A stretch of DNA of 64,000 nucleotides from Raillietiella orientalis (lineage: Eukaryota). The stretch's first letter is position 1. Every line of letters starts with the position of its first letter. The stretch spans positions 744,001 to 808,000 of the forward strand of contig JAYWIR010000026.1 in the NCBI GenBank assembly GCA_036172245.1, read 5' to 3'. This document shows positions 20,378 through 64,000 of the stretch, in pieces. The notes below the pieces were generated by a model, which ran no database searches, was not told the origin of the DNA, and worked only from the letters and a program-made list of their open reading frames with translations. Position numbers and translations under genes: made by a program.

Positions 20378-21131
20378 TGCAACGCCGGGGTGGAAGAAGA
20401 GAACGAAGTCCACCTCGTGTTGTTCCGTGGGTGTTCGAACACGCGCGCGCACGCACACGCAAAGTGGACCTGACTTCTGCAAGCAGAATCGCAGCTCCAT
20501 GGTAGCACCTTGGGAGGCTGATCACGGTGGACCGATTTGCCTCATTTGCGATCGTGGAATACAGCGTTCCTTCTGTAAGTCTTCCCGGCCGACCGTGTCC
20601 CATCAGACACGTATCCAAACACCAACCCGCTGCAGCCGGGATCTTTTTTTTTCCTTCGCACGATGCCTTCTTTCCTGCAGAGTTCAGCCGCTCTTTGTCG
20701 AGTAGAAGAGCTGACCATCCCAAGTACCCAAGTACCGCGCCCTCTGTTCCAAGTGCGGATGGTGCACGGAAGATGGGACGGGGTTATCTTCCGAGTCACC
20801 GACACCCTTCGGCCTTCCCGAATCCCGATCAGTTGACTCCGAGATGACCTGCGAGTGCCGGTGGTGAAATAGTTTCAGTGGCAGATGGAAGAAGGTTTTG
20901 GAGTTGGACATCCGGGATCATGACAGGAGCAGACAGGAAAGCTCCTCCCACACGAAGGGCTGGAGAGTTCAAAGCGCATGGCACTGGGTGCCGACATTTT
21001 CTCATGGCTAACAATGTTACCAGCCTCCTCTAATCACAGTTCCGTTCAAAAAGAAACCTTCCAGGCGCAGGTGCTTGGCGACCAAATCAAAGTCCTCAGT
21101 CAACTCTTCTGCATATCTCCAAGGGGTATGT

Positions 21132-37451: not shown

Positions 37452-38165
37452 ATGATGGAGCAGAGGTTGTCAAAGCAGATGGCACATAATGACTGGTCAA
37501 AATACCTAACTTTCATCCAGCCTGCACATCTAGTAGCTGGAATAAGTGGTGGCGTTCTGTCAACACTTTTAGTACATCCTTTAGATCTCGTAAAAATCAG
37601 GTTTGCTGCTGATGAGGGAAACTGCATTGATCGCCCTCACTATAAAGGCTTGTGTCATGCATTCCGTTGCATATATCAAGCAGAAGGAGTTTCTGGTCTA
37701 TACAAAGGTGCTGTGCCAAATATTGTGGGAGCTGGGGCATCGTGGGGTTTATATTTTTTCTTTTATAATGCTATCAAGAGCAGTTACAAAGAACATATGT
37801 GTCAAGTTCAGATGAATCCCATAGAGCATCTTTTAGCTGCAAGTGTGTCAGGTTGTCCACATTGTTATTCACAAATCCAATTTGGGTGGTGAAGACACGA
37901 CTGTGTTTACAGTACGAGGGTAAACTAAAGGAAGCAACAAACCGAGGGATGGTGGATGCTTTCCATCAAATTGTAAAATGGGAAGGAATCATTGGTTTAT
38001 ACAAAGGACTGGTGCCTGGGCTGTTTGGCATATCTCATGGAGCTTTACAATTCATGGCTTACGAAGAACTAAAAAAAGGATATCAGCAATGGACTGCGTC
38101 TTCACCAGATGCTAAACTCAACACCATTTCCTATTTAACATGTGCAGCTTTATCAAAGTTGTTTA
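37452..38165 (+). pseudogene. SLC25A32: Mitochondrial folate/FAD carrier-like gene, intronless, frameshifted at ~37851 and truncated in repeat 3
   Basis: HLVAGISGGVLSTLLVHPLDLVKIRFA, GAGASWGLYFFFYN, TNPIWVVKTRLCLQY, GLYKGLVPGLFGISHGALQFMAYEELK. Similarity stops after ALSKLF. Confidence 0.85.
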
Positions 38166-41100
38166 TCATGCATCACATCGGCGCTTCCCGAATTCATCCT
38201 GCAATCTCAGTCAAGCACACAATGCTCATCATCTTATGAATTCAAGATAATGGAACTCCATTTTCATCCGTTCTCAGCCCCTACCAGCGAATACCCAGCA
38301 TTGCTGCATCAGTCGCGTCCCGAGCCGTGGCTTCGATCAGGGCCCACTTCCCCCATGGCCAGATGCATGAAAATGTTCACGTGTAATCCCCGCTGCTCAC
38401 TTGGTGGGTCGCTCGTAGGGCTCTCCCCCACGGCTGGGCCAGGGGAGCAAATCGGGGTGTGGTGGTGGTGCACGTCTGCAGGGAATCGATGGGACTGCGG
38501 CGACACTCCTGCAGGGGACGCACTTTCACCGCACGGCCGCTGCGCACGTCCCGCGCCGTGGTCGCCGACCCGAGCGGGGCGGAGAGAAGATTCTTCCCGG
38601 AGGACGTTGGTGGGTGGGGAGCACACGGCGACGACGGGAACAACCGGAGTTTTCGAAGCGGAGCGGTCGTGCACCCGTCGGGCACGCGAAAGCAGGACGT
38701 GTCTTCAACAGACAGCTGCAGTGCCGCCAGACAAAGCCTTCGAAAGGAACATTCCACTGCATCGGCGTCAGTTTTTCAAGAAGAGGTCCGATGCATCCTC
38801 TGGAACACCTGAAAGTTCTCCAGTGGCCTTAGGACCTCCATCCTCCTCAGGAATTGATTCAGCATCCGTTGCATTTAACAGCCTGCATTCTACTGCTGCA
38901 AATGAAAGTCCCGTTTAGCAATTGGGTTGCCTTCCGGGCGGCTGCCTTGTTTTGAGCACTCTCACAAATCGGAGATGCCAGCGACTCACAGCTGAATGGC
39001 TCTTTTGTACAAGTACTACTCTTCCAGTTCCGTGAAACTTCTGTTTAGGAAGATCAAACAACAGCTTGGAAATTGAAATAAACGCAGGAGATCGACGTTG
39101 TTGCATATCTTTCAAATTCTTCCTGATCTCGCGAGATCTTCCTTGATCAAGTGGTACCTTATTACCAAATGGGGAGTCTACTTGAACTTTAGTAATGAAT
39201 TTAGATAAATCGGCACTTTGCTCGCTTGGACGAACCTAGGAACAAATAATGATATATTGAATTATGGGTCCGGTCTAGGTGATTCTAGGAACGATCGAGG
39301 CTTACCCTTTCTTTCGTGTACTATAACATCCCTTTTTGCCTCTGGGAGCACTTTCATGGACCTCTTCATCAGAAAGAAACCTGATTTCTATTTTTTTGAA
39401 ACAAAGTATGCAAAGTTTTGTATAAAAGCATTTAATGGGATTTGCCACATCCTTTTTTTTTCTTTAAGGAAGGGACGGAAGTGATCTGCGTGGAATACGT
39501 GTGGAATCTCCCTCAAGTCGTTTCCCCCTTTTTGACCCCGATCATCTGACAGAGCCAAAAAGAAATTTCTACTCCGGCTTCCACGAATTCTTCATGAGTG
39601 TTGCCTTCCGTCCCACAGTTTTCACCTGGAGATCCAAGTCACAGGAATTCTCAGGTTCCACAAACTTATCGATCCCTTCCCATTCCAGAAGATGGGAGGC
39701 GAGCATCTTCATTTCATGTCTCGAGGTGCGTTTCAGATAAGCTTCCCTTCTTTCTTCCCCGGTTGCTCACCGGCTCGATGGTGCAGAGCTGTAATGGCAT
39801 GCGTTCATGCCGACAAGGGAGAGTGGAAAAGTGGTCCGAACGTGGCTATTCAACCAGGTACCCACAGTGGTACGAATGATGCATTCATTGATCTTTTTTC
39901 AGGGCGCCTATGCGCTTCGAAAGCGTCCACAAAGACTAGCATTTCATGAGAAACTCTTGAATAACATAATTTAAAAACATAACTAGTCTGCCCTCTTTCA
40001 TGATGAAGAGAGCGAACTATCTCAGAGTGCACTTAAAGAGAAAGCAGGAAAAGGGGGAGATATACAACAGCTCAACCGTGGAGCCGCGTCTTGGGGTCCC
40101 CTGGGAGGGGACACGTAGAAACGGCGGCGACGAACAGAGCCCCGCCACTAGTGCTGCATGGAAAGATCTGAAGGCTTAGAAGAGGAGCCCTGCTCGGAGA
40201 GTTAGAGGTCACAGAGCATGCTGCATACGACCGAAGTGTCCGTGGAGCGTTGGGAAAGCGGATGAGAAGAGGACAAACGTGGAGGGCAAACGTGGAGAGG
40301 GGAGGTGAGCTTCCCAACTTCCTCCCTCGAAGCGACCAGCGCAAAGAGCCAGGAGAAGAGGGAAGTCCTTCCACGATTCTCCTTTCTTCCAGGAACACTT
40401 AAAGTGGTTTTCATAGAGAAGGGAGTCTCTAATACCTCCAGCAGCAGCAGCACAAATAATCTTTTCTTCTCCATGTATCCCTCAGAGAGGAGAAGGATGG
40501 ATGGAGCGCTGTTTGCCTTTATCTTTTTTGAATTAAATGACGTCCACGTTCGGAGTCTAGGCTGAACTAGGAGCGTTATGAAAAATGGGAACACTGTGGA
40601 ACCTGATAGACAAAAGCAGAAACGAATTTGTACTGCATCCGGTTCAATCTAGACCAAAATAGTTTCTTTCCGGATAGTGTCGTGACTTAAGAGGATCATA
40701 TCAGTTCTTTGCCTCCAACCAGTGAACTTAACATGCCACGACGAGCTGCTCCTACCACGCGTGTATTACCGCACGGAGCTAAACGTAGACAACATAAAGA
40801 GGAGAAAGTTCCAAAGACGGCAGCTGAACGTATGCGGGAGATGAGAGCAAATTGAAAATGCACATGTGAACAAGATGAAGAATACCATGAGGATGCTCAG
40901 ACACAGACGTCCAAGGGATCATAGAGAACACAAATAGCTCAACCAGGAGTACAAGATGCGGATGTGTGACCGTCTTCATTGACTGTTCTTGTGACAAATA
41001 ATCCGTTTGGACACGTTTGCAGCGTTTGTAATGGACTACGGTTTAAGAATGATCTCAGAACACGAAAGCCTAGTCCATCTAGCTGTGTTGCGTGTAGAAT

Positions 41101-41214: not shown

Positions 41215-42150
41215 GCGAGAAAAATAAAATAAAATAAAGGGAGGCCGGGGGAAAGGGTTGCCGGTGTTCGCCGTTCCTAGCTCTCCTCAAACCAGCCCTG
41301 GATGCGGCGAACCCCTCCTTTACTTCTCTCTCCAGGTGAGGTCACCTGTTCTCATGCAGGCGGCTGCCATCCTGGTGACCTGCCTTCGCTGCGTGGTCGT
41401 CTCCAGCACATGGAGGGCTACGATGACGCGGATGCAACCCCGTGGTTGCGACCATTTCGCCTGTCGAGAGTCCTCCAGGCGCTAAGAGCCGTCGCAGCAC
41501 ATCTCGAGCGATGTCTGGTGCAGGAGTGGCTGCTGCCAGCCTCCTCCACCTTAGTTCCTGAAGTGCACCGCAGCCAAGAAAATGTAGAGATCGACTGGCG
41601 AGATCGACTCGGCTAGCGCAGTTCGGAGGTGGCAACCCCTGCGGAAACGCAGTGTCGCCGCTCGTTGCTCTGGAATCTCCAGATCAGGAAGAGCAGCACG
41701 TCCTGATTCCACGAAAGTGTGAGCACGGAAGTGTTCACGCAAAGATGAGGGAGCACAAGTTCGTCAGAGGCAACACTAGATAGTTCTCTCCACCGAGGGA
41801 GTCCTGTCGCTATAGCACGCGGGATGTCAGCATTCGCCGATTCACGCTCCTGCGGATGGAGGTCGGCCAACAAGGCTGTGTCTGGGTCCGTTTCAGCCTG
41901 AAAACGAATCTGGTTCTGCAGAATCAAAGTGCTTATCCGTGGAGTCTCCTGTCCCTTCAAAAACAAGGAAGAATTATCCAGCCTCACGAGATCGGAAAGG
42001 GAAAAGAAGTGTCAGGAGTTCGCCTTGCTGCTCACGAGGAAAGGCCTTCAGGCCCAAGTACGTGGAGCCCGCGGAACGGTAGTTATCCGTGAGTTGGGCA
42101 TCCCGAAGCGGTTTGTGTGTGAGGATGAGGCGCCCGTTGGAAGCCTGATT
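41215..42150 (-). mobile_element. Degenerate 3' part of L1/Tx1-like LINE (subfamily of the 52.3 kb copy)
   Basis: GLPRWRELSSVASDELVLPHLCVNTSVLTLSWNQDVLLFLIW aligns to EELVVPPSCLNTSVFPFSWKQDVIMLVHW. T-rich 3' UTR. Confidence 0.7.
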
Positions 42151-42899: not shown

Positions 42900-43900
42900 T
42901 GCCCCGATAACGCCTGGGCGCTTATTATAACAATCATAAGCATACATGTGTAGGGCCATTGGCCCTACATTGTCCGAAACTGTTCCAAACCTGTTGAGTA
43001 GCCGGAACGCAGGATGCCGACGTTCGCCTTGGCAGCGAAGGGAGAAGAGAAAATAAAAATAAAATAAAAATCAATAACGAAAAAAAAAACCTGGGAGGCA
43101 CGGGAAGGGATCGTTTTTCGCTGGAGGGCGTCTTCCACATCCTCTCCAGGATGCCGGTAAGTTCCATCCGAGTATGCACCAGGTGGGTTAATCTAACTAC
43201 CGTCCTCAGGAAGTGCAGGGCGCAGCAGAGGGAGTCCCTATCGCGCCGCTCTTCTCTCGCGTAGCCCCGTGCCGCCACAATCCCACGTAGGCAACAAAAA
43301 GCTGCTGGGGATGTGGCAGGCAAAAGGGTGTTACTCACAAAGAGGCACTTGAACACGTCCCTGGGATCGCCCGTCGGTGCACCAAGGATCGCTGCGAGAC
43401 GAAACCACAGGGGCGGAGGGCAGGAAGAAGAAGAAGGTGCGGGAGGGATTTTCGTTCCCCACACCTGCAGCAGCTGGGGTACACAGCCAAGTGGGAACCA
43501 GTGGGAACGGCGGGCGTTGCACGGGAGTCCCCAGTGCAACAGCAATAGTGCCGGTTCCTGCCACTTCAAGGTGCAGTTGTTCTTCAGCGCTGGGGGTCCC
43601 TCGAGGTCTTTCTGTGAAATTCCAAGCAGCTCACCCCAGCGCAACAGTTGTTTCGGTGGGGCACTTGGGGTAGCAGCGTTTGTGAGCTGGACCATGGTCC
43701 TGCTCCGGTAAGAACAGGAGGCTTTGCTATTTCTGCAATGGAGATTCCAGTGCAACCAGCGCAGACACCTGGTTTTTGGGAGAACTGCCTCCCCGAACTG
43801 TTTAAGGTGAGGGGCGATGGATTCGCCCCTCACCTTAAACTTTTGTTGGACTGCATTGCCCCGTAGAACTTGTGAAAGAGACTTTCTTCGGTGTTCCGAC
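42900..43900 (-). mobile_element. Degenerate 5'-truncated L1/Tx1-like LINE
   Basis: QLTNAATPSAPP..LLRWGELLGI..KWQEPALLLLHWGLPCNARR; 3' UTR ends AATAAGCGCCCAGGCGTTATCGGGG. Confidence 0.85.
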
Positions 43901-46900
43901 AACCTCAGAACACCGCTTTAGACTTGTTGCGACGCTTCTTCACTTCCTGAAAGGAACAGAACACTTCTTAACACTCTGGGGAGCCAGAAGATGTCTTCAG
44001 TGATATTACCACCATATACAGCTGCTTTTAGGAAGAAAGATAAAACCCATCTTTTTCATTTTTTTATTGTTACTTCCCCTTGTTCACTGTTTCTTCAGTG
44101 CTGGTGGTCATCCCCAGTGAACTTTTGCTTTTTTTGGCATCTCTTGTATTTAGGGGACGTCTTTTCCTCTGACTTGGGGAGTTTGCTTTTTAAATATTCG
44201 TCCCGCCATGACCGCGTAAAAGTCATCTACATTCTCTTCGGTCGTTATTTTCCTTATTGTTCTTATTCTTTCGTTTTTCTATTTGTTCTGTTGCCTTTTA
44301 TATGGTGAAGTTGTCGAGATGTCAGTCAATTCTCCGCTTTCTTCAGACGTAAGTTGTAGGAAGGAGATAGATACCCTGTAGCTTCTTGGCCGCTGATCAA
44401 CATCATCTTTGGCATCTTGATGCTTACTCGTTTCAAAGCGTCGCTGCAGCCTTGATCAGGAAACTCTTGCAATTTGATCAACTCCACGGATATGACTTCT
44501 GTCTCGGTTGGTTTTGTTCCCGCGTTTGAGTACGTATAACGCGCATGAACGTTCTTCCAACATGAACTGCAAGCTGGTATTACACACTTCATGCAGATTC
44601 TATCCAGGGATCGGTCGTATCGTTCCAGGTTTGCTCCGCGGTTCGTTTCATTGGTTGACTGCTGTAGTTTCTTGTCCTGAGGCAGTCAGTGGTGGGGCAA
44701 GGGCTACCCGAGACCCCTGCATCGAGTCCTTCAGGAGATCTTCCAGCGGCTTACATAGGAGTTTCCGTAGAGGAAGAAGTTCCTCCATGAGCACTACGGA
44801 GTGACCACTTAGGACTCCAGTGCCTTCTGCTGCCAGGAGTCTCAGTTTTGGGGACTGTAGGAGATATACGGGTGAGATTCCAGCAGGGAGGACAGATGCC
44901 TCAGGGGATAGCCAAATCCAGTCACCCTATTCCAACAGCAGGGTCGCCGCGAAAGGAGTCCTCCGCTTCCAGTGCATCGTCGTGGGACCTGGCACACCAC
45001 ATCAAGTCCAAAAGTCCACAATTTTCCATTCGGAATGCACCTGCAGCCCGATCTTGTGGATAGTCGGGAGACCAAGCCGGCATACTGATACGGCGTTAGC
45101 AAGCATTTCAGTTGGATCCGGGAGAGAGGAAGTGGGTGATTGGAACTGACGTCCCGGGTGAAAAGATCCTGCCTAAACAACGCGAGGATCTTCCAAAAGG
45201 AGGCGAACTCGAAGACACCGGCTCACCGGATTTTATCGCGAAATGTAATAATATTATCAAGGAGGAGGAACACAAGCTTCGAAAGCAGGTAAACATTATT
45301 CGACGTCGTCGCTACGAAGGTAAGAAGCATCGGAATGCAAGAGTTCCCTCTAGTGTCTCGAGAAAAGGTCGACTTTTGGGATTCGGATGGTTTCCTCTAA
45401 TGAGACGATCAGAAGGGAGAGAGCATCACGAACAGTGGAGAGCGACGCGAGTCGGACATCGATATTGAATAGACATTGAAGGAAATTGTGTGCTGAGATG
45501 GACGAAGAAGGAAATGCTCAGGAAAAGAACAAAGAATCCATTCAGTGCTGAAGAACTCTGGAACGTGCAGCAGAATGGCAATAAAGTAGAGGGGTTAAAT
45601 GTAAGTTCCTTTTAGGCCTTTGTCCGATAGAAAAAAATTTCATCCCAAGGAAAGAATACTCTGAGTTTTTTCGGCTGACGAATAGAAAGCAGTGGGGAGT
45701 CGCTTTGCAAGTTATCTATCGGATGATCGATCGACAGGGTACGAAACCGCCTTGAATGTTCTCCGTCAGTCCAGCCCGTTGAGATGAAACATCCACCTTG
45801 AAGATGATCGCGAAAGCGTTCCATCTCTTGAGTCAAGCCGACAGCTCCACTCCGAAGGCATTCGTCGCTTGCACGTCGAGAGGATGTGGACCACTGTCCC
45901 GGCGAACGGTACGATGGCTCATCGTACATTCGAAATCGGGACGACTGGAGTGTCCTCGGTCCGACCTGCGGAGGGATGCATTTGTTTGACTACTTTGTGA
46001 AAAGTAATTACAACCACACATCTGCAGACAATTCCTCAAGTGTTCCTAGACACAAAGACCTCCGGTCATGAAATGTCAAATTCTCCGTTCACTTTCAAAG
46101 ATCTTTCTCTGTTGGTGAGAGGAGGTGTAACCAGGATGAGGTGAACAGTCCATTCGCTTGGGCAACATAGGTCATCTTCTTCCAGGTGTAGTGGTTAGTC
46201 CTGCTGCAGTTTTTTATTCCCCCCCTAATAACTCCTTGGATGATCTTTATATCAGACGCTATCGCTCCAGTGTTCTTCGTCTTTGTTTTTCTTATCACAA
46301 TGCTCATGATAAAGAGGGGTATGCTGATGCGGACCATAAAATTGCATCGGAAAACATTCCCGACCCTTTCAAACATTCCCTCCAAGACCTCTATCTTCGT
46401 CTTCGTCAGCAGGTGGGTCGCTGACTTCAGCGTTGTCCATCCTGGAGCAACCTCAGGCTGGTGAGAACGTGAAGCTGGGTTTCCCAATCTCCACAGGCCT
46501 TGAAGAGCTCGTCTGTTTAATGTTTCGGTCAAAAGCAGCTCAGATAATTTCTGTGGTGGTGGTGGTATAACACACCACAGAACACGGGATGACCGTGGCA
46601 TCCTCGGTGTCCAGGAGTAGGCCGCTCCTCCATATAGTTCTGCGAACCGCTTGCAGGATTACGTAGCGGGTCCCATTGCGGTTGGCGGACTTGTCCAGTT
46701 ATTCTTCCTCCTCGACGCGGAACACACCGAAGCTCTTTGCGCGGACGCCGGACGTGCTTTCGATTCACCCCGTAACCCGCGGATGCTCCCAACTCGCCGT
46801 GATCGATTTGGGGGGAAATAACGGTACTCGAAGGCGATTAAAGAACGGCGGCACCGACTCCAGACGTTGCCGAGCAGTGCCTGCTGCATAGAGGAGACAG

Positions 46901-50330: not shown

Positions 50331-52309
50331 CGTAATACGCCGCTCGGGGCAACATCTCACCCACCGAAAATAGGCTCAAAGAACTCGCAGGTTTCACTGT
50401 GCTCTTTCCACAGTATGCACTCATAAGAGGGCAACCTCGCAAATGAAGCGCTGCGATCACGCATATGTAGTGCCTTTTGCACACATGCATCATATACATC
50501 TTACACATACATCTTACACTAGCCGTGCACACAGAACATATTGTGCACATGTGTACTGCAGAACCCATGAGTATACCATACAGAATGGGCGCCCCGGTTA
50601 TCCAGCACTCTTTATTTCTGTTGCCCATGGGGAGCAAGGGAGACATCCAAGAGGCAGTAGGAGAAAAACGTGACGACAAACTCGGAAACGTCGACCTCAC
50701 TTTCTGCAAACGATCCCTCTTTGGCCATCAAACACGAATCGTGCACTGCAAATCACACGACGATCCCCATGCTTTATCCCCATCGGGACCAGAAGCTCTT
50801 AACAACTAGTGTTCTAGCAAAGGCGAAAATCAACAGGCATATGCATAGGGATTAACTTGAAATACCTACTTCTTTAGCAAGTCCCTATATTTAGCATCAA
50901 CAGCAACCTCTTGTCTTCGCACAGACCCACGTATGAAGCTCTTGCATGTTCTTCCTATGAGAATTGGGAAACAGGAAAATAAGACGAACAGCATTCCTTG
51001 AATTGCAGTTGCAAGGAGGGAAAGTTGGTGAGACGCATCCGACCCTTCGTTGGCAGGGAATTATGCACTTCCGCAGTCAAATATTATCGAAATCTACGGA
51101 TTCGAACAACGGGCCGTACTACGACGACCAGGACTCTGCACGGTCCTCCACGAAGACGCATACAATTCGAAACAATTTGCCAGGAAAGGCAATGGGCGGA
51201 TAAATTCTCGACGAGGACGGTCCGATTCTGAGCGAGCGAACCTCCTTCGTCACCATGGTCACCATCAGTTGCAGAAAACGCCCACCACGTGATCAGTCGA
51301 AACATCCACACGCAAAACGGCATGAAGACCGTTTCGGAACTCCAGGAACGAACCCAACTCTGACCCGCTGCCTCCAGCCTCCGTGAAACCAGGATGTGAA
51401 GGAGCGAGTTCTCACTCTTGGGAACGGGAACGTCAGGTTCCCTATTCTTGTACCCATGTTGAAACTCGGAATCCTCAGCCACACTTCAACCATCGGTCAT
51501 CCCATCCATCTTTGCAGTTACCGGCGAGAATGCGGAGATTTCTCAAACATTGGTTTTGGACCACGAGCGCTCGTTTTCGCTCCTTGGTGAACTGCTCATG
51601 CCAGACCGACTCCAGGAGTCCATTCACAAATTGAAAGCACTCAATTTCTGAAAGCTTCCCCTCGCAATTTGCATTTTCCAACAGACAAGAAAGACGCAGC
51701 AAATTCTCGTTTTTTTAAAATAAAAACCAACATTTTAGTTGCCTCCGAAAATCAGCTTTTCATCTCATCCATGGGACTCCAGGGTTCCCGCCTTTCCAGT
51801 CCGTCAACCCATCGAAACACGCATTGCAACCGCCCTTTCCAAGTCAGCACCGAGTGCACTCGCTCGTACGATCGTTCCTCTTCAGTTCTCTGAAGAGGAA
51901 CGATCTCGTGGAAACGAAACACATCTATGCAGCTAGGGAAGAAGATTTAGAGAGCGAGCACTGTCTGTCGACTCCCATGAAGCCAAATCTTTGCCGAGTG
52001 TCGGGCTAGTCCACGGTCCGCAAATCAAGCTGCAAGACCACAAAGACGAATGATCCACCGTGTGCGGTAGGAGACTTTGTTCCCCGAATGGTACGCGCGT
52101 GCCTCACAGTTTGCGCGTGAGCACTGCATCTCTGCAGATGAGCTCCGCGAACTGCACGCCGCTCCGTACGGAGAAGCACAAAATCTCCTCGTCTGCTATG
52201 CCCATCTTACGGATGGCATTACGGCATTTCCGCGTGGCTAGCTGTGAATGCAAATTCCCAACCTTATGAAGGAGGGCAGGGTTGTATCCCTACTTCATGT
52301 AGGCCTGTA

Positions 52310-54141
52310 CTTCTGCGGCCATGTCCGGACGACCCGTCGCAGCCTATGCTGATGAGCTGCTTCTCCTTTTACCCATGATCACCCCGTCGTCCAGTCTGGA
52401 GGATTTCTTCGAACTGATTCTCCGGGGAGCGGGCATGAGCGTTAACCGGGGCAGGAGCATGGTGGTTCCTGTTGGTGCGTCGTGTAAGGGGCAGTCGGAA
52501 TGGATCCGCCTGGGGATCCCAACCGCTCCAACCATCCATTATCTGGGCGTTCCTCTGGGGAACATCAGCCCAGTGGAAGTGTGGTCGGACTGCCTTCGGA
52601 AGGCAATGAATGCTCTGAGCCCGTTCCAGCATGGCAGGTTCCTCCTGTCATGGCGGGCCGCGATATGGAACACCTTCGTTGCCCCCCTCTCGCGCCCCCT
52701 GCTTTTTGTTTGTCCGACCTCCTACTCGGCCAATCTCAAGGCGCACAGCCTGTTGAGGAACGCTCTGTGGGGACCTGCGAGGTCCAGGATCCGCCTGAAA
52801 GACTTGGCGGCTCCGCGTCGGGATGCTGGCTTAGGCATCCTGACGCTGGAGAGAATCGAGCTGCAGGTGCAGCTTCGAATGTTGGCCCTGTGCGCCAACC
52901 TTTGGTCCACTCCGTGGTGCGCTCCCGCGCGCCTGCTTCTGCGGCGCTGCACAGGCAGCGATGGACTTCTGTCGCTGCGGCGGGACAAGGAGCGCGCCAC
53001 GAGAAGCTTCGGTTTCCCCTTAAAACCGCTCTACCGACTCCTGGAAGCCCAGGAATGGATCTCCTGCCGCCCAACGAGCTTTAAATCCTGGCGGCAGGAA
53101 CCCTTGCATGGCTGGGCAAAGCACCAGGATGTTTCCCTCCTGGAACTCCGTTGCGCTCACCTCTCCCCGTACTGCACAGTGGATCAGGTGTGCAACAGCC
53201 AGGAGAAGTGGACACACCTGGCCGTCACGCCACTCGGCGACGTGCTGTCAGCCCACAGGGCAAGTGATGACAGCTGCCTACCGCCGAGGTGGGAGGTCGC
53301 CTGTATCATCGCAGGAGCAACACGACCCGTAGGCGGCTAGAGGACTTGCGAGCTGGCAGACGCCCCCACGCCTCGCCACATCCCCAAGGGACTCCGTCGG
53401 TGGAGTGAACACTTGAGTGTGCCCCCCGAAGAACTTGTGGTCCCTCCCTCCTGTTTGAACACTTCCGTGTTCCCCTTTTCTTGGAAGCAGGACGTCATCA
53501 TGCTGGTGCATTGGGGTTTTCACTCCAGCCAGCGGACGAACCGCGTTTCCGGGGGAGTCGTCTCCCCAAACTGTAAGCGGTGCGGGGAAGTGGAAACGCT
53601 CCCGCCTCTGCTCTTCGTCTGCGGTGTCCTCGAAGGACTGTGGCGGAGGCTGGCTCCAGCTCTCCTGCACCAGGGGGACACCGCGAGAGACTTGATGCAC
53701 CGCTTCTCCACGCCAGGCGGCCTGTCCTTAGGTGCTGTCCTCGCAACGGTCTGTTGCACCCGCGCCATCGACAACGCCCACCGAGAGCTGGAGAAGTTGG
53801 CCATTCTTCGTCAGCCAACCGGATTAGCCAGCGCAAGCATGTCGTCGGCTGCCGAGTGGGCCCACCTACCAGAGAGCGTGAGGAGAGAGATCGCCGGCAT
53901 CCATCGCCGGTATTGAAAGGAAGGAACGGTCTCACCAAAGACCCCTGTCCCCTGCCCACCAAATTTTTATTTTTATTTTTTATAGTAGTCTATTTGTGGT
54001 CCCCTCCCTCCCGTTCCGGACTTTCGCCATACCGACCTGCGTGTCGGGGATCCCACCCCCTTCGTATGTTGTTTTCCCCTTTGTCCAGGAACTCTGTTCC
54101 CGGATAGTTTTTAATAAACTCCCCGGCGCACCCGGGTGATA
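52310..54141 (+). mobile_element. LINE copy E: RT C-half, zinc finger and 3' UTR; its 3' end abuts copy D antisense
   Basis: AYADE, YLGVPLG, RRDAGLGI, CKRCGEVETLPPLLFVC. Internal TAG at 53338. Ends AATAAACTCCCCGGCGCACCCGGGTGATA. Confidence 0.92.
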
Positions 54142-56422
54142 ATCAAACGCCCCCTGCGATCCTCTCGATCTCCTGGTCGTTCTCCGCGGTGATCGCGTGG
54201 ATGTCCTGCAGGAGCGCCAGGTCGAATTCACGCAGGATGGCGGCCATGTCACGTGTGTTGCCGTCGTCGCGCAGCCCGTTGACGTTCCAACAGGCCACAC
54301 GCAATCGACGGCGACAGGCGAGCCCAGGTGTTATTCCTGGGAAAGTTGCAATGGGGCTCCGGCCACCTGGTCGGGCGGGACGGATGGAGGAACGGGATCA
54401 CCGCGCACCGGTTCTCCCTCCTCCATGGGGGCCGATTCCTCGGCGGACCGCAACGGTTGAAGGGGGCGGGTTTCACGCACCTGCTCCCCCTCTTCCATGG
54501 GGGCCGATTCGTCGGCTGCGTTGGACGGCAGGGAGGAGCGGTTGTCAGCTGTCTGCTCCCCCTCCTCCATGGCTATCTCCTGGACAGGTTCCACCGTTGG
54601 CAGGGGGCGGCAATCACTCACCTTATCCCCCTCCTCCATGGGGGTCTCCAGTTGCTCGGTAGCGGAGGGTGGGAAAATCCCTCCATCCGTTCCCACGCTG
54701 CCGGCTTCCCCCTCGGATGCCGGTGCGTCCCCCTCCTTCTTTGTCGGGATGCGCCTCTTGGGATTCTTGGACTTTCGTCCAGTCTTCTTCGGAGGCGCCT
54801 CCGCGGAGGAGGACGCACTTCCGGCATCCGGTTCGTGGTCACCTGTCCGAGGTGCCTTGCTCGCGGCCGGCCTTCGCAAGGCCTTTCGCGCGCCGTTCTC
54901 ACGCTCCGCGAGTTCGGCCGCGAGCTCTTCCGCCGCCTGCTGGAAGGCGGAGTCCTCGATTGCGGCGAGCGCGTCGCTCGGCTCCTCCTCTGTTTGCACA
55001 GAGGAGGAGCCGAGGTCGCTACTTCGTCGACAACGAGGCGGGGGATATCCCCCCCGGTGGCGGTCTCGGGGACCTCCACACGCTCCAAGGCGACCGAACA
55101 TTCACGGAGCAACGCGCGGCGTTGTCTCCTATTTAAAGTTGATGTCGCGGGTTCCGCTGTCGGTTTTTCGGATTTTTTTTCTTTTCGGCTTCGCTGTCCG
55201 CCAGCCTTCCTTGTCACCAGCGTTGTCTGGAGTTTTCTCGACCGCCGTTTGCTAGGAGCATTCAGACTATGGCTTTTTGCTTGGCCTTTCCTTTGCTTCT
55301 GTGGGCTTGCTTGTTTTCTCCAAGCGTTTCCCCTTACCTTTTTTCAAGGCAGAGGGCGCTGCAGGTTCCCGCTTTAGGCACATTTTCCGGAGGTGGCCCT
55401 TCTCCCCGCAGTGGAAGCACTGGATGTGAGGGCACCGTATTTTCAGGTGCCCTGTCGCATCACAGTGCCCACAGTACTTGGGGTTGCCCACGTACCAGAT
55501 GTCGACCGTCCCGTTGTCGACTACTAGTTTGTGGGGTAGCCCACCGTTTTCGTGTACGGTCACTTGCGCTGCAGCCATGGCACTGAACAGTTTTCTATAT
55601 GTTAGGAAGACGTTAGGCTTGGTACACAGAGCGTGAACCGTACCATATTTCGTCAGCTCTTTCTGCACACCAGCTTTGCTCATACTGAGAGTTACACCGA
55701 TGAGATGCGCTACAACTGAGCGATCCTCTGTTACCGGGAAGACCTATCGGCCTTCCAGTGTGATGGGGGTGTTCAGCAGGCGCTGAGCCAGGCTTGCATC
55801 TTTGCAAGTAAGCTACACCCGCTGACCCCCACTCATGACGGAAAGGCCTTCCAGGTCTTCCTCGTTCACATTCAACCGCTGTAACTCTCTCTGAAAGTTA
55901 CTAGCGGTGTTCCCCACAAATACAATTGTCTACCTTATAGATCAAGGGTGGCTTATTTCCTTGATCCCGGTAGGCACGTTGTTCTGCCATGGCTTCAGGG
56001 GATGGCGCTGCAGTCACAGCGCACCACGTCTTCGTTGATGGAGAAGACGCATCCACGGGTGCGATTGTCCCCTTTTTCATAGGGGCGGTTGCGCCTTTTT
56101 CCAGTGTGGCGTTTGTACCCTTTTTCCAGGAGGCGGATGCACCCTTTGGCACAAGGGCAGTTGCCTCCTTTTCCAAGGAGGCGGCAGCCCTCGTTTCCAA
56201 CGGGGCGGTTGCCCTTTTTTTCAAGGGAGCAATTGCCCTCGCCTCCGTGGGGACGATTGCCCCCACCTCAATGGATTGGGGAGAGGAACAAGCCTCTCCC
56301 CCTACGGTGTTCATCGCGGTATCCTCAGGCATTTCTGCCATTGGACACCGCAGATGCTCCACACTGACGAAAAAGAACGCGTCACAACAGGCGCAGCGGA
56401 GCGCGGAAAAAACACGTTCGCA
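54142..56422 (-). mobile_element. LINE copy D: 5' UTR, disrupted ORF1 and start of the endonuclease
   Basis: ORF1 is homologous to 61397-63046. ORF2 start RRRLRVACWNVNGL..DLALLQDIH is cut off at ~54142 by copy E. Confidence 0.92.
54331..56341 (-). pseudogene. ORF1 (gag-like, 2x CCHC) of copy D with stops and frameshifts
   Basis: YCGHCDATGHLKIRCPHIQCFHCGEKGHLRKMC; stops at ~55901 and ~55267. Confidence 0.88.
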
Positions 56423-56692
56423 CGCCAAGTTGCTAGCAGGGCTATGGGCTTCGCGTCTGGGGCAGGTGGCAGAATCCATAATTAGCCCGGAGCAGAATTA
56501 TGCTGTTCCCGGGCGGAGTAAGGATGCCAACCTCTTCTTCGCAAGCACATGGGTGCACCTGCAGAGGAGAGAGAAGTAAGGGAAAGGAAAAATCGGCAAC
56601 CCCACTTTGGGGCCGCCAGCCGAGTTGGGAAGGGATCCTTGGGCGGGGAAGGGGGCCTTAGCGCTCGCAGTCGATCTCCATAAGACGTTCGA
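56423..56692 (+). mobile_element. LINE copy A, RT fragment 1 (host of D and B)
   Basis: AKLLAGLWASRLGQVAESIISPEQNYAVPGRS...GEGALALAVDLHKTFD. Confidence 0.9.
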
Positions 56693-56910
56693 TTTTCACC
56701 CGGATTTCGCCGGGTTGTTTATTGTACAATAAACTTTTACAAAGACGTGCGGGGGCTGGACCATTGCTCCAGCCACGCACGAAGAAACACAGAGCCTGCC
56801 GGGTCACCGGTTCGCAGACCGGTGCGGTCCACCACGGCAGCAGGGGAAAGGGGGAAAAACAAAAAACAAAACAAAAAAGAAAAGAAAAGTTGGGAGGGTA
56901 AGGGAAGGGA

Positions 56911-59900
56911 TCACAGTTGCTGGTGGGGCCGTTGCATCCTTTGCAGGATGCCGGCAAGCTCCTTCTGTATTCCTGGATCCAGGTGAGGCCATCGGGACGC
57001 CCTCCTCAGGTACTGGGAGGCTGGCTGGATGGCACCCTGGTCGCGTTGCCCTCCCTAGGCCTTGCCCCAAGCGGTGACGATCCCGCGTAGGCAGCACAAA
57101 GCTGCTAACGAGGCCGCTGGCCGAAGGGCGTCGGCAACGAAGAGGGCTTTCAGTGCGTCCCTGGGGTTGCCGCAGGGGATTCCGATGGCCGCGGCAAAGC
57201 GAAACCAAAGGGGCCGAAGGGCAACACAATCCACTAGCAGGTGGGGGAGGGACTCCCGTTCCCCACACCTGACGCAATTGGGGTCCACCGCTCCCCAGGT
57301 CCAGTGGTGTCGGCGGGCATTGCAGAGGAGTCCCCAGTGCTGCAACAGGAGAGCCGACTCCTGCCATTTTAAGGGGAGGGCGGAAGTGTTCATGAGCACC
57401 GGGGGTCACTTCAGATGTTCAATGGGAACATCGAGCAGCGCGCCACAGCGCAGAAGTCCATTGGGAGGCGTACTCGGGGTCGCAGCGTCTGTTAACTGGC
57501 CCGTCTTCCACTCTCCTATCTTCTTCTCCTTTCTGGAGATTGTTACTGTAACCACCCACTTCGCCGCAACATCGCTGTCCAGATCTTCCATCAGGGAGGA
57601 CAGCGCAGCAGCGAGGGCGGTTCTTCCTGCCCACGCTCTCTTCTTTGGATCCTCCAGGATCTCGCGGAGCGTGCAACTTCTGTAACCCCCAAACAGGAAC
57701 CTTCGTTCCTGTTGGGAGCGTTGCATGCCGAACTGTCCCCACGTTCGAACGGTTTCCTGCAACCAGGCACTACCGTTCAAAGGGCGACAGGTGAGCAATC
57801 CTTGATTTTTCCTTGCCAGCGCAGCCACCCTCCGTAGCTGAAGCCCACATCGGTTGATGCGGCTTCGATGGAGTGCAAGAAACGACGTCAGTTTCGTCTT
57901 GCCGGTGGCTTGCTGGAGAAGGAGACGTGCAGGGACGCACCAACAGGTGCACCACAACTCTGGAACGAGTGCCGACAATCGGAACTGGAGCTGAAGCTCC
58001 AGCCGCTCCAGCGTCAGGAGGCCCAGACCACCATCCCGACGAGGAGCGCACAAGTCCTTTAAGCGGACTCGGGCCCTCCCGTTGCCCCAAAGGGCGATAC
58101 GGAGGAGGTCCTTTGTCCGCTTTTTAATTCTCTCTGTGGGGGGGCAAACAAAAAGCAGGGGGCGGAGGAGAGGAGCCGCGAACGTGTTCCAAACCGCGGC
58201 CCGTTCAGGCAGGAAAAACCTGCCGCCTCGGAACGAGCCGATCGCCGTCTCTACTTTTTGGAGGCAGCCGGACCACGCTTCCGCAGGGGAGTAGTCCCCC
58301 AACGGCACACCAAGGTACTTGAAGTACCTCACCGTGGGGATCCCCAAACGGACCCAGTCCTGCTGCCCTGCCCACGCCGCACCAACTGGCATCACGGACG
58401 ATTTCGCCCTGTTCACCGTAAGTCCGGTTCCCCGATGCAGCAGGTCGAAGAACTCCTCGACCGCCGCAGCCGGGGTGGACATAGGGAGCAGCAGCAGAAG
58501 GTCGTCCGCGTATGCTGAAACGGCCGGCGTACCGGCACAGTCGTGCGGCAGGTGCGCCAGAGTTCCCCTGTACGCTCTCAGTACCAACTCAAAGTAGGTA
58601 CTGAAGAGCAAGGGGCTCAGGCTGTCTCCCTGCCGGATCCCACGCCGCACCGGCACGCCGTGCACGGTCTGCCCGCTGAAAGTAACATTGATGAGCGCGT
58701 CGCGCCAGCAGGAGCGCAGATAGGCCACTAATGAGGCCGGGAAGCCCAAGCGTTCAGAAGCTCCAGAAGGAGATTCTGGTCGACGCAATCGAATGCTTTT
58801 CGCAAGTCGATTGCGACCGCAAGGGCTCCCTCCCCCACCCGACCATCCAATCCCTTGCCGGCGCACGCACCGGATTTCCGGCTGCGCACCAAGCTCCTTT
58901 CATGTTGGAGCTCTAGCCAGGTGGAATCGTGGAACAGGTTCGCCTCCATGCTTCGCCCGGGAACAGCATATGTCTGTTCCGGGCTGATGAAGATGTTGGC
59001 AACCCGTCCCAGACGCTCTGCCCACATCTTGGCTATCAACTTGGCGCCAGCAGCCGCAAGCCTAGGTGGCAAGTCTCCTGCCGCATCGCAGGCAAGGAGA
59101 AGTTGATCAGCGGCTGGTCCACGGGTGAACTGGCGGACGCCAGTACCCCTAGTGTCCAGCCGAGAGGACTGCAGAGATGGGGCGAGCTACTCGGCATCCA
59201 GCCGGATGACCTGAAGTGGCCCCCGGTATTAATTGGATCTAGGATCCTCCCCCTGATGTGGCAGGAGTCGGCGCTTCTGTTGTTGCATTGGGGTCTATCC
59301 TGCAACGCACGCCGCCACCACTGGACCAGGGGTCGAGTAGATCCTACCTGCATCAGGTGTGGGGAACGGGAAACCCTCCCTCACCTCCTTGTTGATTGTG
59401 CTGCCCTCCGACCCCTGTGGGAACGTCTTCGTGCCTCCCTACGGATCCAGGACGGCAGCCAGCCCAGAGACGTTTTTCGGCTTCTGTTCGTGCATGATGC
59501 CCTGCGTCCAGCCGCTGCCCTGGCTGCACTTTGCTGCGTACGCGGGATTGTGACGTTCTGGAGCGAAGTAAGAAGACCGAATCACGACAGGGATGCCGTC
59601 GTACTTGCAGTCCGCTACCTGCGGATTGTGACCAGATGGCCCCACCTGGGAATTATACGGACGGACCTCGAGGGCATCCTGCGAAGGATGGACCCTCCTC
59701 CCAGTAGTCAGTGATCCCTCCCCAACCCTCCCAAATCTTTTTGTTTTTATGTTTTATTTTTCTTTTTGTTTTTTCCCCCACCCCCTTCCGCTGCCGAGGA
59801 GAGTCGCGCCGGTCTGCGTACCGGCGACCCGGCAGGGTCAGTTGAGTTGGCCGTAGTGGGGCCTCGTACCACGAACCAAAGAGAATTTTAAATAAACGCC

Positions 59901-61382
59901 CCGGCGTGACCGGGTGGCAACTATCAACTTGGCGTCCGCATTCACTATTGTGATGGGACGCCAGTTGTTCATGCTCCTCAGATCTCCTCCCTTAGGGAGG
60001 AGCCGCACCTTTGCCGAACGAAACGAGGCGGGAACGACACCTGTTTCGCGTATCAGCATGGTGAGTTGCTGTACCAGGGGGGTAAGCTCAGCCGCGAAAG
60101 TTTGATAAAACTCCGCGGGCAGGCCGTCCTCCCCTGGAGCCTTTCGCCTCTTGAGCTTTCCGATGGCCGAGAGGATCTCGTCGATCGTGAAAGGCTCGTC
60201 GAGGGTCTTTCTCTGCTCCTCCCCGATCGCTGGAGCGCCTTCCGGAAGCAGGAGTCGTGAGACGTTCCTCTCCGGAGGTGCCCTGGCATACAGGGAGGAG
60301 TAGTAACTCCGCAGCAGGCCGCGGATTTGGTCAGGTGCCGAGTGCTCCTGGCCCTCATCGTCCAGTAAGCTGGCCGATCCGGACTGCCAGGCTTGCCTCT
60401 CGGCTCCCGCTTTGTATTCCGCCAGCCTGCGGATGTCGGGGGTCCTAACGTAACGACGGGCCTGCAGGTAGGCTCGTTCGTTACGGACCCCGGTCCCAAA
60501 ACCCGTAGGTAGGCGGTGCAGAGGGAACTGGTCGCAGAACTCCTGGACCGACCGCTTGAAGCGGTCCCAATCCTGGAGTGTCCGCAGCCTGAAGCTCCGT
60601 ATGAACGTGCGGAGATGTTCCGCCGCATCCGGGAGCTTCAGCCAGTCCCCTGGGAGACGCCACGCTGACGAGGAGGGGCCCCTGTCGCGCGGATGGATCT
60701 CGAGGACTAGCGGGCGATGGTCGGACAGCTCGCACGGTAACTTGCCGCGCCTGCCCACGCGAGGGCACAGGTGCTCGTCAAGAAACACGTGGTCAATGCT
60801 GTCTTCCATCCCCGGTGCACTGGCCAACATATTACAGGTGTGCACCGCCATGCACACCTCGTTGACCAGGTCACGCTCGGGATTCTGCCCATCAGGTTTC
60901 AGGCGAACGTTGAAATCGCCTGCAACCAGATGGGCATTCCGCACGCCTGCTTCGGTCATCCAGTCTCGCCGGAGGGCAAGGAAAAACTCTTTCCTCGTCC
61001 TCCTGTTCATCAGGTCCTTGCCGCTCGGTGCGTACACGTTCGTGACGATCAGATCGATCGAGTCGGACCACCTGAGAGTCAGCTGGCCGACACGACCGTG
61101 ATCGTCGAACCGCACGCCCCGAGCCGCGGCCTCGACGGCTGGCCGAAGCAGGTAGGCGACACCGCAACTTTTTACTCTCCCACACCTGTATCATAGCCGC
61201 CCTCCGGAGATCCGTTCGATCTCTTGCGCTTGTTCTGCAGAGATCACGTGGATCTCCTGCAGCAGCGCAAGGTCGTAGGACTCCAGAAGGGCGGCCATGT
61301 CTCGTCTCCTGCCGGCGTCTGTCATGCCGTTCACGTTCCAAACGGCGATGCGCAGACGACGGCGGGAGGAGATTCCCGGCAT
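56911..61382 (-). pseudogene. ORF2 of copy B: APE endonuclease - reverse transcriptase - zinc finger, disrupted
   Basis: WNVNG, LQE, NVYAP, GDFN, IDH, SDH; KAPGEDGLPAEFY, WRPITIVNADAKL, DLRKAFD, GIRQGDSLSPLLF, YADD, YLG. In-frame stops at 61191 and 57406, a frameshift at ~58750, a stop at 57055, and insertion of copy C. Confidence 0.95.
59047..59920 (+). mobile_element. LINE copy C: 874-bp 5'-truncated copy inserted antisense in the RT of copy B
   Basis: Perfect 14-bp TSD ctatcaacttggcg at 59033-59046 and 59921-59934. Open ORF2 C-terminus to 59714. Ends AATAAACGCCCCGGCGTGACCGGGTGGCAA. Confidence 0.96.
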
Positions 61383-61396
61383 TACTGCTGGGAAGA

Positions 61397-63046
61397 TCAA
61401 GGTGTGGGGGAGCCCTCCTCTTGCGAGGCGGGCGGGATGTCCATGGGGGTTTCGGCCTTCTCAGGCACCTGAGGCACCTGTTCAGCCTCCACCCCCTCCA
61501 TCCCCTCCGTGTCCGCGCGTGGGAGTCTCTCGGGCGACGGGTATCGAGAGTTTCCCACGCTCATGGCACCCTCGCTTGCGGAAGCCATCTCTTCCCCTTC
61601 GACGGGGGAGACGAGCTTCCTTGGCTTTGTGGACTTACGTCCAGCCTTCTTGCGCGGTGCCGTGGAAACGGAGGCTGCGCTTCCGGCCTCCACCTCGGGG
61701 TCGGAAGTGGGGGACTCCTGAGGGGAGGCCGGACGCCTTACGGCCTTCTTGCCAGCCTTGGAGGGTTCTGGCTGCAAGGAGGCTGCCAGCTCCTCCGCGG
61801 CTCGCGCGAAGGCTACGTCATCGATGTTGGTGTCGATGACGGACGCCGCCGCCGGCTCGCTCCCCTCGCTGTTGACAGAGTCAACAGAGGGGTGGTCGAC
61901 GGTAGCGGCAAGTTCTTTTTCGTAGCGGTCGGGAATACGCTCGACGACAACGCTGCATTCTTGAATTTGCTCGCTTGCCTGCTGTTTTTTCTGGCGGTAC
62001 GCGAGCTTTTTCTCCATCCTGCTCTCTTTCTTTGATTTTTTGGCCGTAGCCACCTGCCACCCAGGCTCCTGGCTTGTTCCCTCGACTTGTTCGGCGCTGT
62101 TCGCCGGGGTCTCGGGTGCGGCGTGGGCCTTGGGCGCGGGTGGCACAGCCTTCGCGGCAGCTTTCGCCGCCAGCCTTTTCTGCAGAAGCCGATCACGTTT
62201 TTTAAGGTTTCTCTTGGAAACCACCCGCACTGCTGCTTTAGGGCACACCTCCTTCGTGTGTCCCATGGTTCCGCATACTTGGCACTGCACATGGGGACAC
62301 CTTTTTTTGACGTGGCCCGACGTATTGCAGAAGCCACAGTATTTCGGCTTCCCTACATACCAGAGGTCGACGGTTTCGCCCTCGACCACCAGTTTGTGGG
62401 GAAGAGTGCAGCCCTCCCGAACGGTCACGCGCGCAGCAGTGAGGCCGTGTTGCAGCCCCGTGTAGTCCTCGAAAGGACTTACTTTCGTCCACTGCGCGTG
62501 GACCGTTCCGAACTGTTCCAAAGCGGCGCGAACCTGTTCTTTGCGCATTCGCGCGGTTACGCCTAACAGGTGGATCACCATGCTGCGGTCCGCCGTAGTG
62601 GGGAGGAGCCTGCGCGTCCCCATCACAACGGGGGTTTTAAGCAGTCGTTGGGCCAGCTCTGCATGTCTGCAGATGACCTCAACGTACTGACCCCCGCTGC
62701 GGATGGTCATAGCGCTAAGCTCCTCCTCTTTCACATCGAGAGCGCGCATGCCCTTCGAGAAGGCGCGCGCGCTCTCTAAAGAATATAAATTGCCTACCTT
62801 GTAGAACAATGAGGGGTTGTACCCCTCCTCCACATAGGCCGACAATTCCGCCGCGGCTGCAGGCGATGGCGCCGACACAACGGCGCTCCACGCCCGCGCT
62901 GCAGCGGGGATCGATTGTGTGGGGGCGGATGCCCCCACCTCCATCGCCTCCGGGGGCGACGTTGCCGCCGCCCCCTGGCTCTCCATCGCCTCTGGGGGCG
63001 GCGTTGCCGCTGCCCCCTGGCCATCCCTGGTGTTCGCGTCAGGCAT
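61397..63046 (-). CDS. ORF1 of copy B, intact 549 aa nucleic-acid-binding protein (RRM-like region plus 2 CCHC knuckles)
   Basis: First ATG at 63046. YCGFCNTSGHVKKRCPHVQCQVCGTMGHTKEVC. The ORF2 ATG follows 14 nt after the stop. Confidence 0.9.
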   Translation of the reverse strand: MPDANTRDGQGAAATPPPEAMESQGAAATSPPEAMEVGASAPTQSIPAAARAWSAVVSAPSPAAAAELSAYVEEGYNPSLFYKVGNLYSLESARAFSKGMRALDVKEEELSAMTIRSGGQYVEVICRHAELAQRLLKTPVVMGTRRLLPTTADRSMVIHLLGVTARMRKEQVRAALEQFGTVHAQWTKVSPFEDYTGLQHGLTAARVTVREGCTLPHKLVVEGETVDLWYVGKPKYCGFCNTSGHVKKRCPHVQCQVCGTMGHTKEVCPKAAVRVVSKRNLKKRDRLLQKRLAAKAAAKAVPPAPKAHAAPETPANSAEQVEGTSQEPGWQVATAKKSKKESRMEKKLAYRQKKQQASEQIQECSVVVERIPDRYEKELAATVDHPSVDSVNSEGSEPAAASVIDTNIDDVAFARAAEELAASLQPEPSKAGKKAVRRPASPQESPTSDPEVEAGSAASVSTAPRKKAGRKSTKPRKLVSPVEGEEMASASEGAMSVGNSRYPSPERLPRADTEGMEGVEAEQVPQVPEKAETPMDIPPASQEEGSPTP

Positions 63047-63140
63047 CGCTGCCTGATCGACCACCGAACCACACGACGCTTGCACTGGGGAAGACTTCCT
63101 GGCACGAGGAGCACCGAGAAAACACGTCCACCCTGGAGCA

Positions 63141-64000
63141 CACAAGGCGTTCGACTGTGTTCACCAAGAACTCCTCTCAAAGCTGCAGGGTTGCATGGTC
63201 TTCCCACCCTCCTTGATTTCCTACTTGCGCTCTTCCTGGTGAAACGCGATTATTACTATCTCTTTCAGTGGACAAAAGGTGTATGGCGTGTGGGTGCCGC
63301 GGGGCATAAGGCGGGGAGACAGACTCAGTCCCCTGCTCTTTATCACCTACTTTGAGTTGGTTCTGAGAGCGTATAGGATTACTTTGGCCCCCTTGCCGAG
63401 GTCGCGCCCGGCACGCCCTTCGTAGCAGCGTATGCCGACGATCTTCTCTTCTTGTTGCCGATGTCCACCCCGGCGAAGGCGGTCGGGGATTTCTTCGATC
63501 TGCTTAGCCGCGGGACCGGACTACAGGTTTACAGGGCGGAATCGTCGGTTGTTCCAAGAGGTGCGGCGTGGGCAGGGCAGCAGGACTGGGTACGTTTGGA
63601 GATCTCCACAGCCAGGTGCTTGAAGTGCCTTGGTGTGCGGTTGGGGGACTATTCCCCTGCGGAAGCGTGGTCTAGCTGCCTCCAAAAAGTCGAGACGACG
63701 ATCGGCCCGTTCTTGGAAGGAAAGTTTCACTTGCCTGAACGGGCCGCGCTTTGGAACGCTTTCGCAGCTTCCATCCTCCGCCCCTTGCATTTTGTTTGCC
63801 CCGCCCCCGTGAAATACCAGGAGCGAAGGAAGGACCTCCTTTGCATTGCCCCTTGGGGCAAGGGGAGGCCCCGAGTCCCTCTGAAGGACTTGTGCGCTCC
63901 GCGTCGGGACGGCGGTCTTGGCCTCCTGACGCAGCAGCGCGTGGAGAAACAGCTGCGATGGCGCACCCTCGCCCTCGCAGCGAAGCTATGGTGCAACCCT
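63141..64000 (+). mobile_element. LINE copy A, RT fragment 2 (continuation after copy B)
   Basis: KAFDCVHQELL..FPPSLISYLRSSW, AAYADDL, DLCAPRRDGGLGLLT. Continues fragment 1 exactly across the TSD. Confidence 0.92.

Follow-up and report, generated by a model that had tools for sequence, protein, structure and literature searches.

The distal end of a 64,000-nucleotide (nt) stretch of the Raillietiella orientalis genome (GenBank assembly GCA_036172245.1, contig JAYWIR010000026.1, positions 744,001 to 808,000 of the forward strand; hereafter the window, with coordinates counted from its first letter) is occupied by long interspersed nuclear elements (LINEs) nested in one another. The layout of the nest was established from stop-to-stop open reading frames (ORFs), self-BLAST and tblastn. 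Positions 52054–64000 consist of LINE pieces almost throughout, which follow each other on the plus strand in the order F, E, D, A-left, B-3′, C, B-5′ and A-right. A first-pass annotation made from the letters had counted five copies; six pieces were found, the addition being F (52054–52320, minus strand). As that annotation had claimed for four junctions, every LINE-to-LINE junction in the nest is antisense to its host.

Two insertions, B in A and C in B, have both junctions present, each with a 14-bp target site duplication (TSD). B is a full-length element on the minus strand (56693–63140; 5,560 bp without C) that splits the reverse transcriptase (RT) of A at its KAFD codons. The left part of A (56419–56692, plus strand), recognized by pattern matches and collinear with the RT of B, starts with CGCCAAGTTGCTAG (56423–56436), spans the RT from the DAKL codons to the KAFD codons and ends with one TSD copy (56679–56692). 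The right part of A (63141–64000, plus strand) opens with the other copy (63141–63154), continues the RT from KAFD on and runs past the window end. The two copies, CATAAGACGTTCGA on the left and CACAAGGCGTTCGA on the right, lie in the KAFD codons of A and are identical at 12/14 positions, with both differences being transitions; the duplication noted in the first pass is thus real and imperfect. Removal of B and one TSD copy renders A collinear with B.

B is in turn split at DAKL by C. The 3′ part of B (56693–59032, minus strand) contains the hairpin 3′ end with the tail GTGAAAA, a C-terminal Cys/His domain and the RT back to DAKL. The 5′ part (59935–63140, minus strand) contains the RT N-terminus, an apurinic/apyrimidinic endonuclease (APE)-type endonuclease, ORF1 (587 codons, with CCHC knuckles) and the 5′ untranslated region (UTR). 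C itself (59047–59920, plus strand) is a 5′-truncated copy of 874 bp comprising the end of the RT, the C-terminal domain, the 3′ UTR, the hairpin and the tail GTGGCAA. It is flanked by a perfect 14-bp TSD, CTATCAACTTGGCG (59033–59046 and 59921–59934, plus strand), in which the DAKLI codons of B are read antisense. The DAKL site and the perfect TSD agree with the first pass, which had ended C near 59838; the copy reaches 59920.

The contacts of E with D and of D with A are each represented by one junction, a caveat already attached to them. E (52321–54142, plus strand) is a 5′-truncated copy of a divergent lineage (45% amino acid (aa) identity to the RT of B) that extends from the YADD region of the RT to the 3′ end, with a hairpin at 54115–54137. 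Its tail, GTGATAA, ends at 54142. The next bases, TCAAACGCCCCCTG, are antisense to the sequence that encodes the N-terminus of the D endonuclease, so that the 3′ end of E cuts D at 54143, inside the endonuclease as first proposed. D (54143–56418, minus strand) comprises a near-complete 5′ end, a frameshifted ORF1 with CCHC knuckles (zf-CCHC) and the endonuclease N-terminus (60% aa identity to B). The alignment of the D 5′ UTR to the B 5′ end extends to the very first bases, and this UTR meets A at DAKL, as had been noted, beside CTAGCAACTTGGCG (in D orientation). The boundary is ambiguous by four bases (56418 to 56422) and is the same 14-mer boundary as that at the 5′ junction of C in B, within 0–4 nt.

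No second E/D junction is present. On the left, the truncated 5′ end of E faces F head-to-head, and beyond F comes low-GC non-LINE DNA. Translation and tblastn (43.6% identity; local alignment limits 52054–52319) identified F as an internal fragment of ORF1 (approximately aa 97–193 of B ORF1) with two in-frame stops. F was also considered as a part of D displaced by a long duplication, and this was rejected as the two are only ~63% alike. Within the window, D lacks its 3′ part and A its 5′ part. Given the F/E junction and the absence of these two halves, the left half of the nest is rearranged or deleted.

The elements belong to the L1 superfamily, as judged from an APE endonuclease, an RT, a CCHC-bearing ORF1 and a 3′ end made up of a hairpin and the tail GTGNNAA. 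In B ORF2, the APE endonuclease lies N-terminal to the RT, the arrangement expected of the superfamily (Exo_endo_phos, E = 2e-5, 24.9 bits with a cut-off of 24.5; RVT_1, E = 1e-10). The N-terminal region of the B RT (residues 274–424) matched human L1 ORF2p with E = 1.6e-25 compared to 7.6e-4 for R2; a more C-terminal piece matched L1 and R2 about equally. B ORF1 matches the zinc-knuckle protein AIR2. The zf-RVT match in B is weak (E = 1.8e-4; 22.5 bits, under the cut-off of 27.5), and B, C and a solo copy at 19.7 kb show a CxxC...HxxxxC pattern. Many L1s typically end in a poly(A) or A-rich tail. Unlike these, the six 3′ ends in the window show AATAAAC, a short hairpin and GTGNNAA, without an A-run; folding energy was better than that of shuffled sequences for the B hairpin only.

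By sequence comparison, the nest pieces fall into at least three lineages of one clade, and not into the one family assumed at first. DNA identities from self-BLAST are 77% for A–B, 75% for C and the 19.7-kb copy, 72% for D–B, 70% for C–B and 66% for E–B, while protein identities range from 39% (ORF1, D–B) to ~70% (RT, A–B), with 45% for the RT of E and B. Every copy in the nest is defective. B has in-frame TGA codons at 57406–57408 and 61191–61193 and a frameshift near 58.8 kb in addition to the C insertion; E has an in-frame TAG (53338–53340), and D and F carry the ORF1 frameshift and the two stops, respectively.

In B and D, an in-frame TGA occurs at a homologous point of the endonuclease N-terminus on the minus strand (B, 61191–61193, ...ISGGRL*; D, 54143–54145, ...IAGGV*), and in D this codon is the exact point of E insertion. 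The shared TGA either arose twice, by independent W-to-stop changes, or is ancestral. Reading of TGA as tryptophan was considered and rejected: in B, C, E and the solo copy at 19.7 kb, ORF1 or ORF2 is terminated by TGA as well as by TAG, so the TGA of B and D is not recoded, and the stop of E at a conserved W is TAG. Repeats were also seen within coding or inter-ORF sequence of D and B. Those of D (54404–54547 and 54619–54649) are tandem, with units of 72 nt toward the ORF1 end, and in B a stretch of 42 nt close to the ORF1 start is duplicated in tandem (62939–63022, 90% identical).

The insertion sites in the nest fall into two target classes. The first, CTAKCAACTTGGCG in insert orientation, corresponds to the DAKL codons and was used by C, D and a D-like element at another locus; the second, TCRAACGCCYYNTG, corresponds to the KAFD codons and the endonuclease N-terminus and was used by B and E. 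With up to two mismatches, the DAKL 14-mer occurs three times in 64 kb, in all cases at the C-in-B and D/A junctions. The chance that a second junction falls within 4 nt of the first, in the same orientation, on a 5.56-kb element is ~8e-4. In the second class, the B target TCGAACGCCTTGTG and the E target TCAAACGCCCCCTG share 10/14 bases in register with the nick, directly after the tail, even though they lie in non-homologous parts of ORF2. Among random 14-mer pairs from the nest such a match has p = 7.4e-4, or ~7e-3 over the ten possible pairs. At the homologous positions of B, which carry no insertion, the sequence departs from the motif. The motif TCRAACGYC, which was itself derived from the B and E sites, has no unoccupied copy in 64 kb. 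A single motif for all sites was not found; AAC occurs in 5/7 targets at varying offsets. Because of the same-site hits, the observation of a nest is somewhat stronger than first noted.

Orientation was assessed at the hairpin 3′ ends, of which the window contains six. Three adjoin LINE ORF2, all antisense and none sense. Together with two further junctions from the public run X1, the hairpin 3′ junctions that land in a LINE are 5/5 antisense (p = 0.03). Strand composition is an unlikely cause of this bias, since the sense strand of B is almost without skew (A.20, T.19, C.30, G.31).

Further junctions came from run X1, which consists of short contigs (share 0.23) that were compared at 85% likeness and may derive from the same sample as the window. 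Most of its 408 contigs are paralogues, 37/408 match at 99% or more, and the parts they leave uncovered are uninformative. Fifteen of 16 joints were interpreted: ten are paralogue mapping or small indels, and four were read as antisense LINE–LINE junctions. Two joints connect a hairpin 3′ end to a B-like endonuclease (at 61219 and 60915) in antisense orientation. In another (56432/59036; ten shared letters, side 58), a B-like antisense RT ends with ...CTAT followed by CAACTTGGCG and then a D-like 5′ end, which makes it a further locus with a DAKL junction. One inverted B/B junction was also present (58145/58638). Since X1 holds both a DAKL junction and uninterrupted sites, DAKL is sometimes occupied and sometimes free. 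In a separate X1 contig (53447/59891), E-like sequence encoding the C-terminus is joined to the final 25–30 nt of a hairpin end that resembles that of C. This contig represents either a copy whose 3′ UTR differs greatly or a short derivative with an internal deletion.

We lean toward reading the nest as a pile of defective copies from several L1-superfamily lineages, the insertion of which was biased to short ORF2 sequences of relatives in antisense orientation. That the nesting was sequence-directed is probable; the targets would be read by the endonuclease or through RNA–target pairing, and the bias would hold genome-wide. Integration would proceed by target-primed reverse transcription, with the host sense strand as the nicked priming strand at all three 3′ junctions. 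The nick would fall just after ...GGCGTTYGA (KAFD and the endonuclease N-terminus) or ...GTTGMTAG (DAKL), and since cDNA would be built on the host sense strand, the new copy would come to lie antisense to its host. The endonuclease may prefer such short GC-rich sequences, and RNA–target pairing could assist, for example by read-through transcripts that carry a downstream target. The target sequences would be present in many related elements because they encode conserved motifs.

Several observations weigh against this reading. The other 3/6 hairpin ends (at 11.0, 19.7 and 42.9 kb) lie in DNA without a recognizable LINE, so LINE targets are not obligatory, and three of six does not significantly exceed the share that LINEs take up in the window. 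The sample is tiny, both motifs were read off post hoc, and no clear motif common to the two target classes was found. The E/D and D/A contacts have one junction each, and the left side of the nest, with F and non-LINE DNA, misfits simple nesting. In X1, the sides of the hairpin joints at 61219 and 60915 measure just 26 and 21 letters, depth is 3 at the DAKL joint, and the joint from 59969 to 54196 is an internal deletion or a sense-oriented junction. DAKL is uninterrupted in P0001, a close relative among public proteins, and free sites are also indicated by three X1 loose-end contigs at 59925 and by the X1 joint 56435/59923 (one shared letter). The target preference is therefore a bias and not an exclusive specificity. 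The first-pass proposal, a preference of the family for its own ORF2 in inverted orientation, survives in part: ORF2 of relatives is used non-randomly and antisense (DAKL twice, the 10/14 match and the uniform orientation), while "own" is too narrow, as hosts and guests belong to different lineages, and half of the hairpin ends are elsewhere. The accompanying idea that inactivation of siblings while host genes are spared serves as a strategy is purely conjectural.

The solo copy at 19.7 kb illustrates such an insertion elsewhere. It is 5′-truncated and on the minus strand (20377–19684; 19671–20390 with its duplications), with a 13-bp TSD, CCCCGGCGTTGCA, on both sides and surroundings without detectable LINE homology, in agreement with the first-pass statement that it sits in unrelated DNA.

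Should the pattern have arisen by local accident alone, the nest would be a graveyard of transposable elements (TEs) of the ordinary kind: LINEs would have landed randomly in selectively neutral sequence rich in LINEs, with luck behind the antisense orientation and the site coincidences. Other LINE fragments do occur in the window (10.3–12.7 kb, 19.7 kb and 41.4–45.1 kb), half of the hairpin ends are outside recognizable LINEs, and four or five antisense junctions taken alone give a p of only ~0.03–0.06. Nesting hotspots and orientation bias are, moreover, common among human TEs in the cited account, which attributes the orientation bias of L1/Alu nesting to the positions of endonuclease sites (PMC2836564). 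The nest resembles human L1/Alu nesting in showing clustered LINE-in-LINE sites with a bias in orientation. Human L1-in-L1 insertions as reported there are, however, 2.2-fold sense-biased (21,559 versus 9,899), driven by the A-rich strand and TT/AAAA sites, whereas the bias in the nest is antisense, at GC-rich 14-mers in coding motifs with little strand skew (PMC2836564). Chance landing would also have to account for the coincident DAKL sites (p ~8e-4) and the in-register B and E targets (p ~7e-4), and X1 adds more antisense junctions and another DAKL junction. We therefore consider a mere graveyard fairly unlikely.

Equally improbable, in our estimate, is that D (minus) and A (plus) are one element with a 5′ inversion generated by twin priming. 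An element inserted antisense at DAKL would leave a cut top strand that ends in CTAKCAACTTGGCG-3′ and is complementary to the DAKL motif of its own RNA, and such a strand could serve at that motif as the primer of a second cDNA in inverted orientation; the head-to-head F/E junction could be a related aberrant event. Nesting and inversion would yield the same local structure (nucleotide 1 antisense beside DAKL sense). D could belong to the lineage of A, given how far it departs from B (identities of 72% in DNA and of 60% aa over the N-terminal part of the endonuclease; A–B RT, 77% in DNA), the D 3′ and A 5′ parts are both missing from the window, and twin priming accounts for ~18–22% of human L1 insertions as reported (PMC12016303). 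At both D/A and F/E, a 5′ segment stands head-to-head with a 3′ segment, as in L1 twin priming; unlike the events described there, the full 5′ end of D lies exactly at the boundary of a proven DNA target, and F and E are non-adjacent in the element, ~2.7 kb apart where small gaps or overlaps are expected (PMC12016303). Whether the D and A segments adjoin in the element is hidden by E, which removed the far end of D. Twin priming would in any case require DAKL to be special, C in B with its TSD already shows DAKL to be a DNA target, and in the X1 contig the RT next to the D-like 5′ end resembles that of B and not that of A. A chimera of mis-joined repeats would fit the single E/D, D/A and F/E junctions, the left half that simple nesting leaves unexplained and the lack of an X1 contig seen to span the whole stretch, but it is highly improbable, as the B/A and C/B TSDs at non-homologous points are beyond what an assembler can invent, copies 66–77% alike are too divergent to collapse and the junction of a D 5′ end with DAKL recurs in an independent contig.

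Sequence-directed antisense nesting would have wider implications. The safe havens of target-specific LINEs include ribosomal, small nuclear and transfer RNA genes, microsatellites and some DNA or long terminal repeat (LTR) transposons. If our reading is true, conserved coding motifs of related LINEs, entered in inverted orientation, would constitute a further kind. Competitors would be disabled and inverted repeats created automatically, with the potential to trigger RNA silencing, and the nest would make it possible to study in a natural setting how 14-bp GC-rich sites are picked by an APE endonuclease or by RNA–target pairing. A bolder version, which we put forward tentatively as the less likely case, is that hairpin-tailed L1-like LINEs home into the sense strand of the most conserved ORF2 motifs of their relatives (DAKL, KAFD and the endonuclease N-terminus), each newcomer inverted in a cousin. 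This would be a LINE-on-LINE parasitism with a target that is multicopy, self-renewing and harmless to the host. Homology between target and RNA would allow the cut top strand to pair with the RNA of the element itself; such pairing would lead to inverted 5′ halves, as at D/A, and to inverted-repeat nests that yield double-stranded RNA.

Among known systems, the nest elements resemble Tx1-clade LINEs, which in the cited account are L1-related and APE-type, have a CCHC ORF1 and use short defined sites in multicopy DNA, including transposons (PMC4494074). Targets listed there are Tx1D piggyBac for Tx1, Mariner-N4_AMi for Tx1-Mar, LTR retrotransposons for Tx1-8_Crp and Tx1-4_AMi, and U2 small nuclear RNA genes for Keno (PMC4494074). 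In contrast to the Tx1 elements as described, the nest targets are the antisense strand of conserved ORF2 motifs in related LINEs, at least two site classes are used and half of the window's 3′ ends fall elsewhere (PMC4494074). Zepp and ZeppL, L1-clade LINEs of green algae, are reported to target existing copies and form GC-rich nested clusters with tandem 3′-end arrays (PMC8226300, PMC3446292), and the nest shares with them the insertion of L1-type LINEs into existing copies (PMC8226300, PMC3446292). Tandem 3′-end arrays such as those reported for Zepp imply the same orientation, whereas all three nestings that are complete or have a 3′ junction here are inverted, and the tail here is a hairpin and not poly(A). 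A limited literature search on self-targeting, nesting and orientation, which is no proof of absence, did not find LINEs described as homing antisense into ORF2 motifs of relatives.

Public protein data contain next to nothing of this lineage. The RT protein search returned P0001 as one close relative (70–74%), uninterrupted at both DAKL and KAFD; the remaining library proteins reach ≤39%. For a peptide across the B/C junction, there was no candidate among near-length proteins and none scored among longer proteins. HMMER against 1.84 billion representatives gave 12,492 matches, only two of them below 1e-30. With the junction query, none of the best 150 of the 12,492 reaches the end of the junction tail, the matching stretches ending at query positions 407–443 of 450. 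A metagenome scan with the endonuclease/RT of B gave one locus at 37% identity, uninformative on junctions, and an atlas search returned generic endonuclease/RT clusters only.

Outside the nest, positions 1–18500 are GC-rich (50–65%) and contain very long ORFs on both strands, for example 2396–3952 (plus, 519 codons) and 9320–10858 (minus, 513 codons); none of the 149 ORFs of ≥75 aa in the first 18.5 kb has a Pfam domain. A LINE hairpin 3′ end is present at 11004–11033 (plus), with a decayed LINE C-terminal region at ~11.7–12.7 kb (plus). An antisense endonuclease downstream of this 11-kb copy was considered and rejected, as there were only weak linked tblastx matches and no endonuclease motif in the translation. 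Minus-strand LINE fragments lie at 41441–41843, 42900–43917 (with a decayed hairpin end at 42902) and 44815–45123. A possible head-to-head junction at 43.7–43.9 kb was not relied on, given weak matches (34–39%) that overlap on both strands (plus strand, 43703–43944). The only clear host gene signal seen is an exon-like ORF at 37769–38236 (plus) in the low-GC part of the window, with a Mito_carr match at E = 1.2e-18.

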